64,000 nt of DNA, taken from positions 64,001 through 128,000 of IMG/VR virus record IMGVR_UViG_3300044729_003129. The stretch is one strand, 5' to 3'. The stretch is from a virus. Of the stretch, positions 2,421 to 30,811 are shown piece after piece (position 1 is the stretch's first letter; the number at the start of each line of letters is the position of its first letter). The notes below the pieces were generated by a model. That model saw only the letters and a list, made by a program, of their open reading frames with translations. It had not been told where the DNA came from and made no database searches. Made by a program: the position numbers and the translations under genes.

Positions 2421-2588
2421 TTATTGTTTTTTCCAAACCCAACGCTTTGGTTTCTTTGATTCCAAATACGCTTCATACGCTTCACGATCTCTGTCAGCTT
2501 GGCAACCTTGTGGTCCTCTGCAAGCACTTCTCAAAGCTCCGTATTTTAAACACGAGCATTCATAAGTGACTTTAGGTTTTTTATTCAT
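2421..2588 (-). CDS. small Cys-rich basic hypothetical protein
   Basis: manually read 55-aa ORF MNKKPKVTYECSCLKYG... Confidence 0.5.
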   Translation of the reverse strand: MNKKPKVTYECSCLKYGALRSACRGPQGCQADRDREAYEAYLESKKPKRWVWKKQ

Positions 2589-2591
2589 ATT

Positions 2592-2846
2592 CTACTTTTG
2601 TTCCTTTTCGCTTAATTGAAATGAAATAATATCACCAATATGATAATCAACCATCTCTCTTCTTTCTTTGCGTGGATGAGATATAAATCCGTCACCAAAA
2701 CACCAGTATTCCACTCCTTCTATACAGGTTCCATCATGCAACTCAATATCATAAAGTTTCTCATCTTGATAATCAATAGGAGTACTACCTGCGTAATGTT
2801 TGTATTTTATATTCATAATTTTACCAGTGTCGTATTGTATTTGCAA
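2592..2846 (-). CDS. hypothetical protein (start probably later, MNIKYK)
   Basis: ORF track. Confidence 0.55.
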   Translation of the reverse strand: MQIQYDTGKIMNIKYKHYAGSTPIDYQDEKLYDIELHDGTCIEGVEYWCFGDGFISHPRKERREMVDYHIGDIISFQLSEKEQK

Positions 2847-2976
2847 TAATAAAAAAGCAAGTGATCAAATTCACAATCCAAAAAATTGTTCTTACTATTG
2901 CAGCGACATCAGACTCACGATCATCGTCGCTAATCTTTGATCCCATTGCTTTAGCCCATATTCTCCAAAGCTTCAT
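2821..2976 (-). CDS. small membrane protein
   Basis: manually read 51-aa ORF MKLWRIWAKAMGSKISDDDRESDVAAIVRTIFWIVNLITCFFIIANTIRHW. Confidence 0.65.
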   Translation of the reverse strand: MKLWRIWAKAMGSKISDDDRESDVAAIVRTIFWIVNLITCFFIIANTIRHW

Positions 2977-2977
2977 A

Positions 2978-3175
2978 TCAGCAAAGATTTCTCAATCCGT
3001 CTTGTTTAATTTGTTTTAATTCTTGCAACAGTTGCTGTGCTTTTTTTTCTAGTGCTTCACGACAATAGTTGTATGTACCATCTGGTCGTTTGCCATTTGA
3101 CACAAGCTCGACAAAACTCCGCAATTTCTCATACTCGATGAGAGAATAAATTTCAGTTGGACTTAGCGGTTGCAT
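2978..3175 (-). CDS. hypothetical protein
   Basis: ORF directly downstream of an early promoter. Confidence 0.65.
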   Translation of the reverse strand: MQPLSPTEIYSLIEYEKLRSFVELVSNGKRPDGTYNYCREALEKKAQQLLQELKQIKQDGLRNLC

Positions 3176-26488: not shown

Positions 26489-26517
26489 TTTACATAGATT
26501 ATAAAAGAGTGTATAAT
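26489..26517 (+). promoter_or_regulatory. plus-strand (divergent/antisense) early-type promoter
   Basis: TTTACA-N17-TATAAT on + strand; only a 3-codon ORF follows. Confidence 0.5.
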
Positions 26518-26540
26518 AATCTATGATTGTTTGATAGTCA

Positions 26541-27002
26541 TCATACATTCTTCCAACGATCTAAGAAAATATTCCATAATTCTTCGTCAGACTGTGATTC
26601 TTCTGGTGGATCAATTTCAGGAATGGGATAATTTAAATCTTCTGATTCATCCAATTCATTCTCATCTGTTTCTTTAGAAGAATTGGACATCAAGTGAAGT
26701 AGTCTCTGATATATAAGTGCTTCTGTATATTTACGTTTAACCTCATCAGATGTATCAGATTCTGTTTCAATACTACGATCATAGACAATACAATTTTCAC
26801 TGTCATTCCCAGCTACAAGTGGTAGCATTACTTGGGTATAGACTCCAGACTTTACAAGTGCTTTTCTTATTTCTAGTGGATAATTTAACTGTATGCCATC
26901 TTCATAGGCATGCACAACTTCTCCTATAAGAACTTTACCACTCGACAATGTAAAGACCCGTATGTCAAGATCTTTTACTTTTGAATATAAGCCATCAATC
27001 AT
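26541..27002 (-). CDS. hypothetical protein between uvsW and gene 55
   Basis: ORF; beta-rich N-terminus (IRVFTLSSGKVLIGEV), acidic tail. Confidence 0.65.
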   Translation of the reverse strand: MIDGLYSKVKDLDIRVFTLSSGKVLIGEVVHAYEDGIQLNYPLEIRKALVKSGVYTQVMLPLVAGNDSENCIVYDRSIETESDTSDEVKRKYTEALIYQRLLHLMSNSSKETDENELDESEDLNYPIPEIDPPEESQSDEELWNIFLDRWKNV

Positions 27003-27910
27003 TGCAGTGGTATTTCATATAGTTTATAGTTAAACCCTTCCTTTGCATACATTTTGGTACGCTCTATTGCGTGTTGCAGTGTGTAATTCTTTTTCTTTTT
27101 CCATGAGAAGTTGTCTGATATGTCATAGACTGTTGTTGGTCGACCATCATCAGATTTTCGTAGTCCTCGACCAATGCTTTGCAATACACGTATTTGACTC
27201 TTTGTTGGCGCAGCAAATATAATCTGGTGCAGATTTTTGATATTGATTCCTGTACTAAACGTACCAACACTCGCCACAATAATTGCATTGTTTTGTGTTT
27301 CAGTTAATTCACGTATGTGTTCTCTGTTTGTTGCGTCTACTTCTCCAGACACATAGAATATATGTCTATCAGAATCACCATTAATACTACTTATAAGTTC
27401 AAAAAGAGGTTTGCCATGTTTCTGAACGAGATTAAAGAGTATGAGTGTATTGCCCTTTTGGTCAAGAGCAAGGTTTGCTATAAAAGAGTTTCGACCAACA
27501 TGAGTCACAATTGCATCTATCTCAGTTTGATAGTCGGCTTTAGAGATTACCTTTTTAAGTTCATCACTGTGGTTGCATACAATACATTTAATTTTTAATG
27601 CAGCAAGAGTATCGTTATCAATAAGCTCTTTTGTTGTAATTACTCGATGAGTTGGACCAAAATTGCCAACAAGTACTCGTTCATTGCAAAGACTGCCATC
27701 AAGGGTGCCAGTAGTGCCTATGCGATAACATGCATTAACACATGCAGACATAATCGTATTTAAACTTTTTGCTTTGAAGAGATGTGCTTCATCTCCTATG
27801 ACCATGCCATAGCTTTTAAACCAGGATTTTTGTAATGTAATTGCGCTCTGCCATGTAGTAATAATAACAGGCGATGGAGTTTCAATGATATCAATTTTAG
27901 ATATTTTCAT
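26999..27910 (-). CDS. uvsW: UvsW helicase, C-terminal fragment
   Basis: VIITTWQS, GDEAH (motif II), GTTGT, FSTGINIKNLH, QSIGRGLR; extra N-terminal MKISKIDIIE. Confidence 0.92.
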   Translation of the reverse strand: MKISKIDIIETPSPVIITTWQSAITLQKSWFKSYGMVIGDEAHLFKAKSLNTIMSACVNACYRIGTTGTLDGSLCNERVLVGNFGPTHRVITTKELIDNDTLAALKIKCIVCNHSDELKKVISKADYQTEIDAIVTHVGRNSFIANLALDQKGNTLILFNLVQKHGKPLFELISSINGDSDRHIFYVSGEVDATNREHIRELTETQNNAIIVASVGTFSTGINIKNLHQIIFAAPTKSQIRVLQSIGRGLRKSDDGRPTTVYDISDNFSWKKKKNYTLQHAIERTKMYAKEGFNYKLYEIPLQ

Positions 27911-28727
27911 ATTTTTTTCTGCCTAACACCCATTCATTATTATCTATAATAGGAAACATCAACTTTGAAATTCGTAATTCATCATTATGATACCATTTCA
28001 TTCCTGTAGTAGTAGAATGTTTGGCTTTACGTTCTTCAGCGCTTAATAAGGAATTATTTTTTATTTTAGTTTTCGACATTTTGCGAACACGATCTGAATT
28101 TTCCTTTGTTTGACCAGTTCGTTCTAAACTAAACTTTTTTCTAACTTCATCAGACCATTCATGTCCAAATTTCTGTTTCCGCTCTTCTTTTGTCATCTTA
28201 GCAATAGTTTCATTGAATTTATTTCGCGAATCTCGTAGCCATTGTGAATTCTCAGCAGTATATTGTGATTTTTTTATATTAGCGATTCTAATATAATCAT
28301 GAGTTTCTTTAGTTCTCCCACTTAAAGCCTTACTAATTTTCTGTTTGGTATTATCATCAAATAATGGATTATTTTTCTGCATATGATCTATCCAAATCAA
28401 TTTATAATCAAGATATTGTCTTGAAGATTTAGATTTATTTCTGCGATTTAGAAAGAACATCGCTCTAACCATTTTTAACCTATTTTCTCCAAAAAACATC
28501 TTTGTTAAAAGTAAATGACAAATAAAATGTTCCCGAATCGTAAGAACTACTTTGTTATCATTTTTATTTTTCCAATCACGATTAAACGAAACTGGAAATA
28601 TATGGTGGTTTTCAATAGGATTATCTAATATATTCCTAGATATAGCGCGATTGATTAAGGCATTATACCATTTTGTATATTTATTGCTTATCGCAAGATT
28701 ATTAAGTTCATTTAAAAAGTAATTCAT
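27897..28727 (-). CDS. HNH homing endonuclease inserted in uvsW
   Basis: ENHHIFP...NKVVLTIREHFICHLLL; NUMOD-like basic repeats; KWYHN...WVLGR tail; AT-rich. Confidence 0.85.
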   Translation of the reverse strand: MNYFLNELNNLAISNKYTKWYNALINRAISRNILDNPIENHHIFPVSFNRDWKNKNDNKVVLTIREHFICHLLLTKMFFGENRLKMVRAMFFLNRRNKSKSSRQYLDYKLIWIDHMQKNNPLFDDNTKQKISKALSGRTKETHDYIRIANIKKSQYTAENSQWLRDSRNKFNETIAKMTKEERKQKFGHEWSDEVRKKFSLERTGQTKENSDRVRKMSKTKIKNNSLLSAEERKAKHSTTTGMKWYHNDELRISKLMFPIIDNNEWVLGRKKYENI

Positions 28728-28758
28728 ACCTACAAAGGTTGTTATAGGTATATTTATA
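28725..28758 (-). promoter_or_regulatory. late promoter plus start-codon-sequestering hairpin of the HNH gene
   Basis: TATAAATA (28751-28758) overlapping the 5' arm of ATACCTATAA-CAACCT-TTGTAGGTAT(G). Confidence 0.65.
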
Positions 28759-29506
28759 CTATGTCATCTTTTAAAGTTAAATCACCAGCTTTAATTTTAC
28801 CTCTATTACTAGTATTTACTATATCATTTGGAAAATACGACTGTATTGATCCATCTTCCATAGTCAATTTAATTTTATTTTTTTGGGGATTTTTATCATA
28901 TCCGCTCATTATCATAGATACACTATCTTCAACATTAAATGTATCATCAGATTTAGAATACTCTTCAAAATCTTTTGTCATTTGGTGAACGAGTGATGTT
29001 GTAGGCACTACAATCAATATCTTTTGATCATAATGTTCTAAAAACCAACGAACACATAAGTAGATAATTAAACTTTTTCCAGAACCCGTAGGAGATATTA
29101 CGAGACTGCGTCCTTCAGTGCATGCATGCACGTATGCTTCAAGTTGATAGTCTCGTGGTGTTATCTGCGTTCCACCACTCGTTATATGTAAACTATTTGC
29201 ATAATCTAACAGCGATTGTGATGTTGGTACATCTCGTTCAGTTATGCTAGGATGCAATTCATAACTATAGCCATGAGAGTCAGCAAACTTTAACACTTCA
29301 AACAACAGACCATATGGTAGTGTTGATGTTTTAGTATTATATAATCTAATGCGTCCATCCCATAATTTATTTCTATACGATGGAACAAACTTATATCCTT
29401 CAGCAAAAAAAGTAAAATGTTCTGAAAGCTCCATAAGAATTCCAGAATCATTAGAGACTATTCTCAATGAAGTTTCGTCAATCTTATGTATCTTTAGATG
29501 AGACAT
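28754..29506 (-). CDS. uvsW: UvsW helicase, N-terminal fragment with intein-like C-terminal tail
   Basis: WDGRIRLY, PRDYQ (Q motif), SPTGSGKS (Walker A), IVVPTTSLV; start set at MSHLKI. Confidence 0.92.
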   Translation of the reverse strand: MSHLKIHKIDETSLRIVSNDSGILMELSEHFTFFAEGYKFVPSYRNKLWDGRIRLYNTKTSTLPYGLLFEVLKFADSHGYSYELHPSITERDVPTSQSLLDYANSLHITSGGTQITPRDYQLEAYVHACTEGRSLVISPTGSGKSLIIYLCVRWFLEHYDQKILIVVPTTSLVHQMTKDFEEYSKSDDTFNVEDSVSMIMSGYDKNPQKNKIKLTMEDGSIQSYFPNDIVNTSNRGKIKAGDLTLKDDIV

Positions 29507-30317
29507 TATCTTTATATTTGCAGTTATCAAAATGCCATCGTTTCATAGTATTTATTCCTCCATTTTTATTACAATGTGGACATATGATAATATTAGATTT
29601 TTTTCCAGTTAATGCTTTACTTATTTTTTCTCTAGTTTCTGGAGAATTAGTTAATCCTATTCTAGTTCCAATTTTACCAATATTAGCTAATCTAAGTTTT
29701 TCTTTAGTTTCTTCAGAGTGAACTTTTAATTTGAGTTTTAATGACCTTTCATTCCATATATGAGCTTTAATACTTTCAATATCTGAAAAATTACTAATAT
29801 CATTATTTCTTATAAATGTTATAACTGAAAAACTAATATTTAATTGTTTCATTGCGGATGTTATTGAATCATACGTTTCTCCAAGTATAGTTATTTGTTT
29901 TGATTTTTTAGATTTTCTACCAGACATTTTTATAGAATGCGCAAAGGCAGATGCTTTTTGTTTAGGTGATCGCAAATCTCCCTTTAAAGTTACTAGTGTA
30001 TTAGACATAATTTCACTAGTAATAATTGGGGGTGCAGGTCTATCTGTTTTATTTAAAAAATCTAAACGATTAACTGCATTTAATCTTTTTAATACTTTAG
30101 ATTCCCATTTACATGCTGCATCTTTATTTTTAAATGTTTTACGTATTTGAATAATATCAGGATTGCCATAGATATCAATATATGATTTTACGACTGATGA
30201 TGAAGTAAAATATGTGACAAATAAATCAGATGGATGACAATTGAAGGAATATCTAACTCCATAATAATATTTGTTTAAATTTTTCCAACCAATTAAATAC
30301 GTATATGGTATATTCAT
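29484..30317 (-). CDS. GIY-YIG (Seg-like) homing endonuclease with NUMOD3 repeats
   Basis: YTYLIGW...YYYGVRY, YFTSS, WESKVL, FLNK; HSEETKEKLR, SPETREKISKALTG; CPHC; late promoter 30323-30330. Confidence 0.85.
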   Translation of the reverse strand: MNIPYTYLIGWKNLNKYYYGVRYSFNCHPSDLFVTYFTSSSVVKSYIDIYGNPDIIQIRKTFKNKDAACKWESKVLKRLNAVNRLDFLNKTDRPAPPIITSEIMSNTLVTLKGDLRSPKQKASAFAHSIKMSGRKSKKSKQITILGETYDSITSAMKQLNISFSVITFIRNNDISNFSDIESIKAHIWNERSLKLKLKVHSEETKEKLRLANIGKIGTRIGLTNSPETREKISKALTGKKSNIIICPHCNKNGGINTMKRWHFDNCKYKDNVSSKDT

Positions 30318-30361
30318 ATTAGTATTTATAATAATACATTTTTAATGTACTGGTATCGCCA

Positions 30362-30811
30362 TTAAGCTCCTGATACAAATCGTCTATGATCTATAATATT
30401 TTTAATTGTGGTATGTCTCCACTTTATATTGTCCATAATATCTTTAAGAGCTTCAACAATTGTAGATTGATATTCTATTTGTCCTTGAAGTTTCATAATA
30501 TCAGAGTCAGTAGAGTAAAACAATTCCATGTCACTTTTAAGCGGTTTCGTCATACCAGAAAATGGATCATACTGCCATCCTTTGGCATCCATTTCGTTTT
30601 TAGTCATCTTACCATTATAGTAGAGCCATTTGTCTTTGCGCAAATGAGCCATAGAGAGTTCTTTCTTTTTGAGATTTAACTTTGCGATGCTATAGAGTTC
30701 TAGATATTTTGAATGTAGACTAGCACTTTTGACGCTCGTTTCATCTAAATTAATCTCATCAATAACGCTGTCAGTTTCCCATAATTTAAGTATATCTTCA
30801 AGTTGCATCAT
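30362..30811 (-). CDS. uvsY: recombination mediator UvsY
   Basis: W..DSVID, LHSKYL, KWLYYNGK, IKNIID.RRF..G; position before uvsW. Confidence 0.92.
   Translation of the reverse strand: MMQLEDILKLWETDSVIDEINLDETSVKSASLHSKYLELYSIAKLNLKKKELSMAHLRKDKWLYYNGKMTKNEMDAKGWQYDPFSGMTKPLKSDMELFYSTDSDIMKLQGQIEYQSTIVEALKDIMDNIKWRHTTIKNIIDHRRFVSGA

Follow-up and report, generated by a model that had tools for sequence, protein, structure and literature searches.

Remnants of a split intein on the two halves of a phage uvsW gene broken by a homing endonuclease gene: a candidate non-covalent clasp

How can a helicase gene be cut in two by a free-standing endonuclease gene and its separate products still form one enzyme? 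The question is raised by a phage record in IMG/VR (IMGVR_UViG_3300044729_003129; 173,760 bp, 97% complete), in a stretch of 64,000 nucleotides (nt; positions 64,001 to 128,000 of the record, hereafter the window) where uvsW is broken into an N half and a C half by a homing endonuclease gene (Table 1). The N half ends with a 40-residue tail and the C half begins with a 10-residue head, and neither belongs to the helicase. Sequence comparison and structure modelling leave the origin of both extensions from a split intein, including its catalytic death, well supported, and we suggest below that they probably hold the two halves of UvsW together.

RecA domain 1 is the site of the cut, because Pfam ResIII positions 2-105 match the N half and positions 100-162 the C half; Walker A lies upstream of the break, and TWQS and DEAH lie downstream. 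The N half (28754-29506) encodes 250 residues from an ATG at 29506, a start that fits its 250-residue relatives, and the first TTG would extend the gene to 28754-29530. The C half (26999-27910, 303 residues) has a start that overlaps the stop of the endonuclease gene by 14 nt, and it is 92-95% identical to the C parts of relatives; no cultured phage matched the uvsW region by megablast. An initial annotation of this DNA had placed the cut between Walker A/motif Ia and TWQS/DEAH, with which the open reading frames (ORFs) and the Pfam matches agree. It had also stated that removing tail and head would restore a normal junction; both are indeed extra to unbroken relatives, but the loop left behind is about 3 residues longer.

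Neither the 40-residue tail nor the 10-residue head occurs in about 70 unbroken uvsW genes from IMG/VR (484-518 residues), including that of a close relative (L002), and all but one of the proteins have a spacing of 32-47 residues between QMxxDF and TWQS. Split genes present a different picture. A length-restricted search for N halves listed 120 homologues, about 50 of which are N halves of 240-270 residues that retain the tail, at 97% query cover and down to 39% identity. Their tails can be aligned over the whole length and fall into two types, a short one that ends as in the window and a long one with an extra acidic-Trp-Leu extension. Likewise, every C half recovered carries a MKIxKI-type head of 10-13 residues ahead of the TWQS strand. 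Since about 50 of the listed homologues keep the tail and every recovered C half has the head, the two are not chance read-through, and the initial description of both as non-helicase additions is upheld. A tblastn match in S-CREM1 that apparently ran over the tail was set aside, the gene being an ordinary unbroken uvsW.

Across relatives, tail identity tracks core identity; in P0028, for example, it is 46, 40, and 44% over three core segments and 57% over the tail. Between the window and L087, the proportions of nonsynonymous (pN) and synonymous (pS) differences in the tail are 0.12 and 0.75, respectively, and in seven other pairs the ratio of nonsynonymous to synonymous substitution rates (dN/dS) in the tail is 0.14-0.39; two pairs lie near 1, and the rest are saturated or intermediate. 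In tails of the long type (L102, L103, L107, L110, L113, L115, and L119), the final codons are shared, in a different frame, with the beginning of the HNH endonuclease gene, and synonymous divergence is below that of the helicase core. Judged by these substitution patterns, the tail is under purifying selection, and it is as conserved as the helicase core.

The source of the tail was sought with a profile built from 41 tails and another built from seven true UvsW N-inteins that lie at other sites. Positions 2-42 of the tail correspond to N-intein positions 53-93 of 100 in an ungapped alignment (hhalign probability 97.7%, E 1.9e-12, 39% identity). This block-B alignment was preferred to a MAFFT alignment (A1), now rejected, in which the second half of the tail lay on intein block A; two others (A7 and A8) were also rejected, owing to one row with a wrong coordinate and to MAFFT having put tails over helicase columns, and A9 was used. 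In the Protein Data Bank (PDB), the tail profile has its best sequence match in residues 73-105 of the NrdJ-1 split intein (E 0.0023), with weaker matches to the DnaX and gp41-1 inteins next. Among 1.84 billion representative proteins, the profile has 1096 matches at E <= 0.001; many of them have the TxxH motif of block B, with block A matched about 55 residues further upstream, and those sampled are inteins by Pfam Intein_splicing. Pfam found nothing significant in single tails, with Intein_splicing appearing in only 2 of the 41 (E 0.093).

The head has a similar relationship to C-inteins. A MKIxKI-type start is also found in the true C-inteins of P0374 and L086; in P0374, the first 14 residues share 9 with the window head and the four residues that follow it, and then continue into blocks F and G. 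True uvsW C-inteins from contigs L082, L084, and L086 have a similar first strand, followed by about 25 more residues that include block F and terminate in HN|C or AN|C. Complete N-inteins, for their part, terminate other UvsW N parts at one of three points: behind the DE of DEAH, behind motif III, or within Walker A. Taken together, the intein sites at Walker A, DE|CH, and motif III make uvsW a hotspot for such elements. The Walker A site is represented by P0066 and P0057, one of which ends SPTG|C and then enters intein block A, and the other resumes HHN|SGKS.

A relative in which the two pieces are fused (P0242) allows the fold to be considered. Its UvsW is unbroken at this site and carries a 58-residue insert in the same loop, in which four linker residues join the tail to a head-like strand. 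AlphaFold2 models the insert alone (residues 214-273) as an all-beta structure of five to six strands in which the head is the long last strand, with a mean predicted local distance difference test (pLDDT) of 83.8; the same strands are obtained in a 220-residue model of RecA domain 1 containing the insert (pLDDT 87.5, predicted template modelling score 0.81). In a Foldseek search of the PDB, the top rows for the insert are nearly all inteins, with query-normalised template modelling (TM) scores of 0.70-0.77 and E-values of 0.018 and above, which are no lower because the query is short. With VIA-align, each of the top 50 rows is an intein or a Hint domain (Z up to 9.0; root-mean-square deviation 2.2 A over 57/60 residues), and the ranges covered are 41-103 in gp41-1, 58-127 in NrdJ-1, and 50-114 in NpuDnaE. 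NpuDnaE, the last of these, is split after residue 102, so that the piece reaches across the natural split site. On this modelling, the retained piece is the second lobe of the N-terminal intein half (IntN) plus the first strand of the C-terminal half (IntC). This is what the initial annotation had proposed, namely a Hint block-B lobe for the tail and a first IntC strand for the head, and three independent lines, the profile comparison, the library search, and the structural searches that it had called for (the fold being taken from P0242), all lead to inteins.

The resemblance is confined to the central ~60 residues of the Hint domain, in sequence and in the fold modelled on P0242, and the parts needed for splicing lie outside it or have changed. 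No Cys or Ser stands at a residue 1 within a block A: the tail aligns only to N-intein 53-93, the helicase runs straight into it, and a hidden Markov model (HMM) of block A finds nothing upstream of the tail in tail-only proteins. The block-B TxxH is F-P-N-D in the window and variable among relatives. Blocks F and G, the terminal His-Asn, and a +1 Cys/Ser/Thr are likewise missing, as the 10-residue head passes directly into the TWQS strand, and no conserved Cys, Ser, or Thr occurs at the would-be junction among relatives. As block A, TxxH, and the terminal His-Asn are all absent, tail and head cannot splice, as had been predicted from the letters of the window. The locus thus has the layout of a fractured gene, with two same-strand host ORFs flanking a free-standing endonuclease gene, and lacks complete splicing-capable split-intein halves; it also resembles genes in pieces, in which a Mob-type endonuclease gene makes the split and both products bear extensions missing from unbroken homologues.

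The tail and head move with the endonuclease gene and outlast it. Compared with the window, P0003 is 72-78% identical over the first 180 residues and 100% identical over the last 78, and P0006, which carries the other tail type, drops from 83-96% identity upstream to 47% and 26% in its last two segments. These shifts show that the cassette and about 36 flanking codons are exchanged between phages, as expected of homing with co-conversion. In L001, a close relative with the same neighbours, the break at this site has a tail of the long type, a head unlike that of the window, and an endonuclease gene of the GIY-YIG family. The endonuclease gene is broken into two ORFs in L087 and reduced to relics of 39 and 16 residues in a 260-nt spacer in L105, and at a second uvsW site in L009 a 149-nt spacer contains no endonuclease gene; tail and head are intact in all three. 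Three further candidates for loss of the endonuclease (L104, L109, and L118) were rejected, since tblastn revealed an intact 253-residue open HNH frame.

The second uvsW site is a break before motif V that is closed by the same tail type (P0013, P0015, P0036, and others). Both breaks occur together in genes of three pieces (L088, 3501-6731; P0121; P0288), each break having a tail and its own endonuclease gene, and P0309 begins with a true C-intein and closes with a dead tail. The module is not confined to uvsW, as tail-only ends are found on a piece of the large subunit of ribonucleotide reductase (RNR; P0265, 619 residues), a PolA-exonuclease-like protein (P0281, 1013 residues), and a superfamily 2 (SF2) helicase other than UvsW (P0292, 365 residues); none of these three tails has TxxH or a block A upstream.

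What might such a remnant do? The most likely reading, in our judgement, is that the intein-derived tail and head hold the UvsW halves together non-covalently, a conclusion drawn from the purifying selection on the tail, the persistence of both pieces after loss of the endonuclease, and weak docking in silico. The retained piece is the central part of a phage-type split intein, across its natural split site; gone are the catalytic ends, namely some 50 residues at the start that included residue 1 and block A, the block-B TxxH, and blocks F/G together with His-Asn and the +1 nucleophile. The uvsW halves would be translated separately, and when they meet, the head strand would complete the small beta-structure of the tail, much as in the first step of split-intein assembly. 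Walker A on the N half would thereby be docked beside TWQS/DEAH on the C half, and RecA domain 1 and its ATPase site might be rebuilt without a peptide bond. Tail, endonuclease gene, and head travel as one cassette, and such a clasp would make the insertion of the endonuclease gene harmless. Binding of the tail to the head, and a need of the helicase for this binding, are what we infer from these observations.

A multimer prediction of the two halves, suggested in the initial annotation, was carried out in a three-chain version, in which the tail was offered as a free partner to the N core and the C half; with this set-up, the trivial complementation of the helicase halves is kept out of the score. 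The interaction score (ipSAE, interaction prediction score from aligned errors) is 0.33-0.35 in three runs (0.34, against 0.01 for the best control) and 0.00-0.01 in three controls, a verdict of weak support. The mark applied is passed by 58/80 solved complexes and 2/110 mismatched pairs, and at ipSAE <= 0.60 the passes comprise only 7 of the 80 solved complexes plus both of the passing mismatches. The runs agree in >= 95% of contacts, and the docked tail has a pLDDT of 86, which falls to 45 when the C half is replaced. The docking is thus compatible with a clasp and gives it weak support; it does not establish one.

Several observations weigh against this reading. The tail dN/dS is near 1 in L001/L065 (0.77) and L105/L109 (0.93), with about 50 codons in each pair. 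The structural evidence comes from P0242, which is known from a single 2.3-kb contig, and not from the two chains of the window itself; the docking pass is weak and comes with no contacts given. Of the alleles that the initial annotation had proposed to look for at this site, the fused mini-insert is present in P0242, but none of the best 150 library hits has a complete split intein exactly here; the nearest true uvsW inteins lie 27 residues further downstream, in the DE|CH box, and behind motif III. Lastly, in the only tested precedent, the NrdA of phage Aeh1, the tails are essential for activity and not for association of the halves (PMC3045599). Because they are dispensable for association there, the role of the uvsW tail could be in positioning or activity rather than in binding.

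The same precedent gives some weight to a neutral relic, in which tail and head would be intein leftovers without a present role and the halves would associate simply as complementary parts of one RecA domain, as the Aeh1 NrdA halves still do when deprived of their tails. The two pairs with dN/dS near 1 and the weakness of the docking would also suit it. We nevertheless consider it unlikely, as a relic would hardly be conserved like the helicase core down to ~40% identity with pN far below pS in most pairs, be kept after the endonuclease has decayed and in the fused P0242, or reappear at the second uvsW break and on enzymes other than UvsW.

Somewhat less likely again is that the coding sequences of tail and head serve the mobile element, as expression signals, in translational coupling, or in target-site protection, and are conserved for that reason. 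The parts do interlock at the level of DNA: 14 nt of the head codons are shared with the end of the endonuclease gene, the end of the long-type tail overlaps the endonuclease start, a hairpin covers the endonuclease start codon, and long tails diverge less at synonymous sites than the core. What is conserved, however, is the amino-acid sequence; L105 and L009 keep their tails and heads with no endonuclease gene left, and the same tail types accompany both HNH and GIY-YIG endonuclease genes.

Rejoining of the gene, whether by RNA splicing of a group I intron with an endonuclease ORF or by unusual protein-splicing chemistry, is very improbable. T4-like phages do carry endonuclease-bearing group I introns. 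A cmscan of 26500-30800, however, detected no group I intron in Rfam even at E up to 5, returning only two chance matches (to a microRNA and a long non-coding RNA family), and relatives at 40% identity still have both the stop that closes the tail and a separate ATG for the C half. Protein splicing would lack both a conserved Cys/Ser/Thr at the junction and the His-Asn. An assembly chimera, which the initial annotation had named among the things that would overturn it, or a dying pseudogene can be dismissed: nothing speaks for either, the same arrangement occurs in many independent JGI, ENA, and Logan assemblies, including a near-identical second contig (L099), and both uvsW halves are under purifying selection.

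The closest known arrangement is nrdA-a/mobE/nrdA-b of Aeh1, for whose tails a degenerate split intein has been speculated as the origin (Friedrich 2007; Crona et al., 2011, PMC3045599). There, too, a Mob-type HNH endonuclease gene interrupts the active-site domain of an essential enzyme, both halves bear tails (C- and N-terminal, respectively) missing from unbroken homologues, and the endonuclease gene overlaps the downstream half and starts within a hairpin. The two differ in that no intein homology has been shown for the Aeh1 tail, whereas that of the uvsW tail can be demonstrated by sequence and fold; moreover, the uvsW tail family is large, occupies several sites, and includes one fused form, and tail function, shown in Aeh1, is inferred for uvsW. 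The Aeh1 NrdA-a tail has no similarity to the HMM of the uvsW tail, even at E 1000.

Fractured genes such as those of gp41-1 and NrdJ-1 (Dassa et al., 2009, PMC2677866) share with the window an N gene, an endonuclease gene, and a C gene on one strand of T4-like or cyanophage-like DNA; the window tail is homologous to the end of their N-inteins, and uvsW itself offers true cases, with insertion in the DE|CH box or behind motif III. Known fractured genes, however, trans-splice with Cys1, TxxH, and His-Asn plus nucleophile, whereas the window is without ~50 N-terminal and ~25 C-terminal intein residues, and its insertion lies in a variable loop and not in a catalytic motif. In the T4 gene 39/mobA/gene 60 topoisomerase (bioRxiv 10.1101/2022.08.31.505936), an endonuclease cassette similarly supplies conserved, always-kept C-terminal and N-terminal extensions (CTE and NTE), the endonuclease gene is often decayed, lost, or swapped for one of another family, and secondary fusions occur; unlike that system, the window has no translational bypass element, and the T4 tails are not reported as intein-derived. 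Assembly of split inteins starts with the disordered second half of IntN and IntC, a step termed capture (Shah et al., 2013, as reviewed in PMC11766414). The piece retained in uvsW corresponds to that second half of IntN and the start of IntC, but the pre-folded first lobe is missing and the window tail and head are not markedly oppositely charged.

In light of the Aeh1 and T4 systems (PMC3045599; bioRxiv 10.1101/2022.08.31.505936), the initial claim of novelty was too strong, as endonuclease-supplied tails that rescue split enzymes are known; our literature search found no paper showing intein-derived, non-splicing tails. The uvsW case joins the split inteins of fractured phage genes with the unexplained assembly tails of endonuclease-split enzymes, and it offers direct evidence from sequence and fold for an intein origin that Crona et al. 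(2011) could only speculate on for the Aeh1 tails. It also shows what may become of an intein after splicing is lost, and suggests a route by which a selfish nuclease could enter essential genes where splicing is impossible. A non-splicing assembly module of ~40 + 10 residues, in short and long types, would be a candidate source of small heterodimerisation tags, an idea made easy to test by the many natural variants and the fused form.

A broader proposal can be made tentatively, with chances that we put a little below even: tail, endonuclease gene, and head would constitute a self-contained mobile cassette that brings its own non-covalent clasp, taken from the capture region of a split intein. 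As no nucleophile would be needed at the junction, the cassette could settle in ordinary loops of essential enzymes, as seen in at least two uvsW sites and in RNR, PolA-like, and other helicase genes. Homing endonucleases would then have, next to RNA splicing and protein splicing, a third general means of making their own insertion harmless, and the cassette would be an evolutionary bridge from split inteins to the CTE/NTE tails of the MobA/MobE systems.

Table 1. Coordinates of the split uvsW locus and its neighbours in the window
Feature	Position	Strand	Assignment and basis
uvsW N half, helicase part	28877..29506	-	UvsW N-terminal domain and first part of RecA domain 1 (Walker A, motif Ia); Pfam UvsW_N (1.1e-17), ResIII (2-105/164), DEAD
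40-codon C-terminal tail and stop codon	28754..28876	-	Block-B-lobe remnant of a split N-intein; TxxH replaced by F-P-N-D, no block A upstream; hhalign, PDB profile, library search, conservation
RNA hairpin between N-half stop and endonuclease gene	28725..28752	-	Predicted fold
Free-standing Mob-like HNH homing endonuclease gene, 276 aa	27897..28727	-	PHROG, tblastn
10-codon N-terminal head of C half	27881..27910	-	First-beta-strand remnant of a split C-intein; blocks F/G and terminal His-Asn missing
uvsW C half, helicase part	26999..27880	-	TWQS, DEAH (Walker B), and motif III of RecA domain 1, and whole RecA domain 2; Pfam ResIII (100-162/164), Helicase_C
uvsY	30362-30811	-	PHROG 231
Seg-like endonuclease gene, 277 aa	29484-30317	-	PHROG 314, NUMOD3, I-TevI-type DNA-binding domain

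On the minus strand, the order of genes is uvsY, the Seg-like endonuclease gene, the uvsW N half, the 276-residue endonuclease gene, and the uvsW C half. The initial annotation had described the gene between the halves as an 831-nt HNH gene. Its nature as a homing endonuclease is borne out by matches to PHROG 655 ("homing endonuclease", 2.6e-30) and to an HNH PHROG (9.9e-07), and it is 27-35% identical to MobD and Mob-like genes of T4-like phages by tblastn, but no Pfam HNH match was found for it. The hairpin in front of it has a predicted energy of -12.5 kcal/mol (z -3.0 relative to shuffles) and contains the endonuclease start codon within its 3' arm. Hairpins upstream of endonuclease genes have been reported for fractured genes and for mobE, in which the structure limits mobE expression; the hairpin in the window resembles these.

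The same phage has another broken gene. The P-loop of its gp41-like replicative helicase is fractured by an apparently intact, atypically split intein (L122, G000:C1:51963-55049; ORFs at 2522-3034 on the minus strand, 1777-2592 on the plus strand, and 556-1725 on the minus strand). Its N-intein of ~18 residues starts with Cys, its C-intein of ~120 residues ends HN|T, and an HNH endonuclease gene lies between the intein halves on the opposite strand. A search with PF14890 found no canonical intein in the phage genome, and the split intein of L122 was recognised by eye only.

The Seg-like endonuclease gene sits between uvsY and uvsW and overlaps the start of uvsW. In L001, which is without it, uvsY abuts uvsW. 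The segE gene of T4 likewise lies just upstream of uvsW, and its product cuts uvsW.

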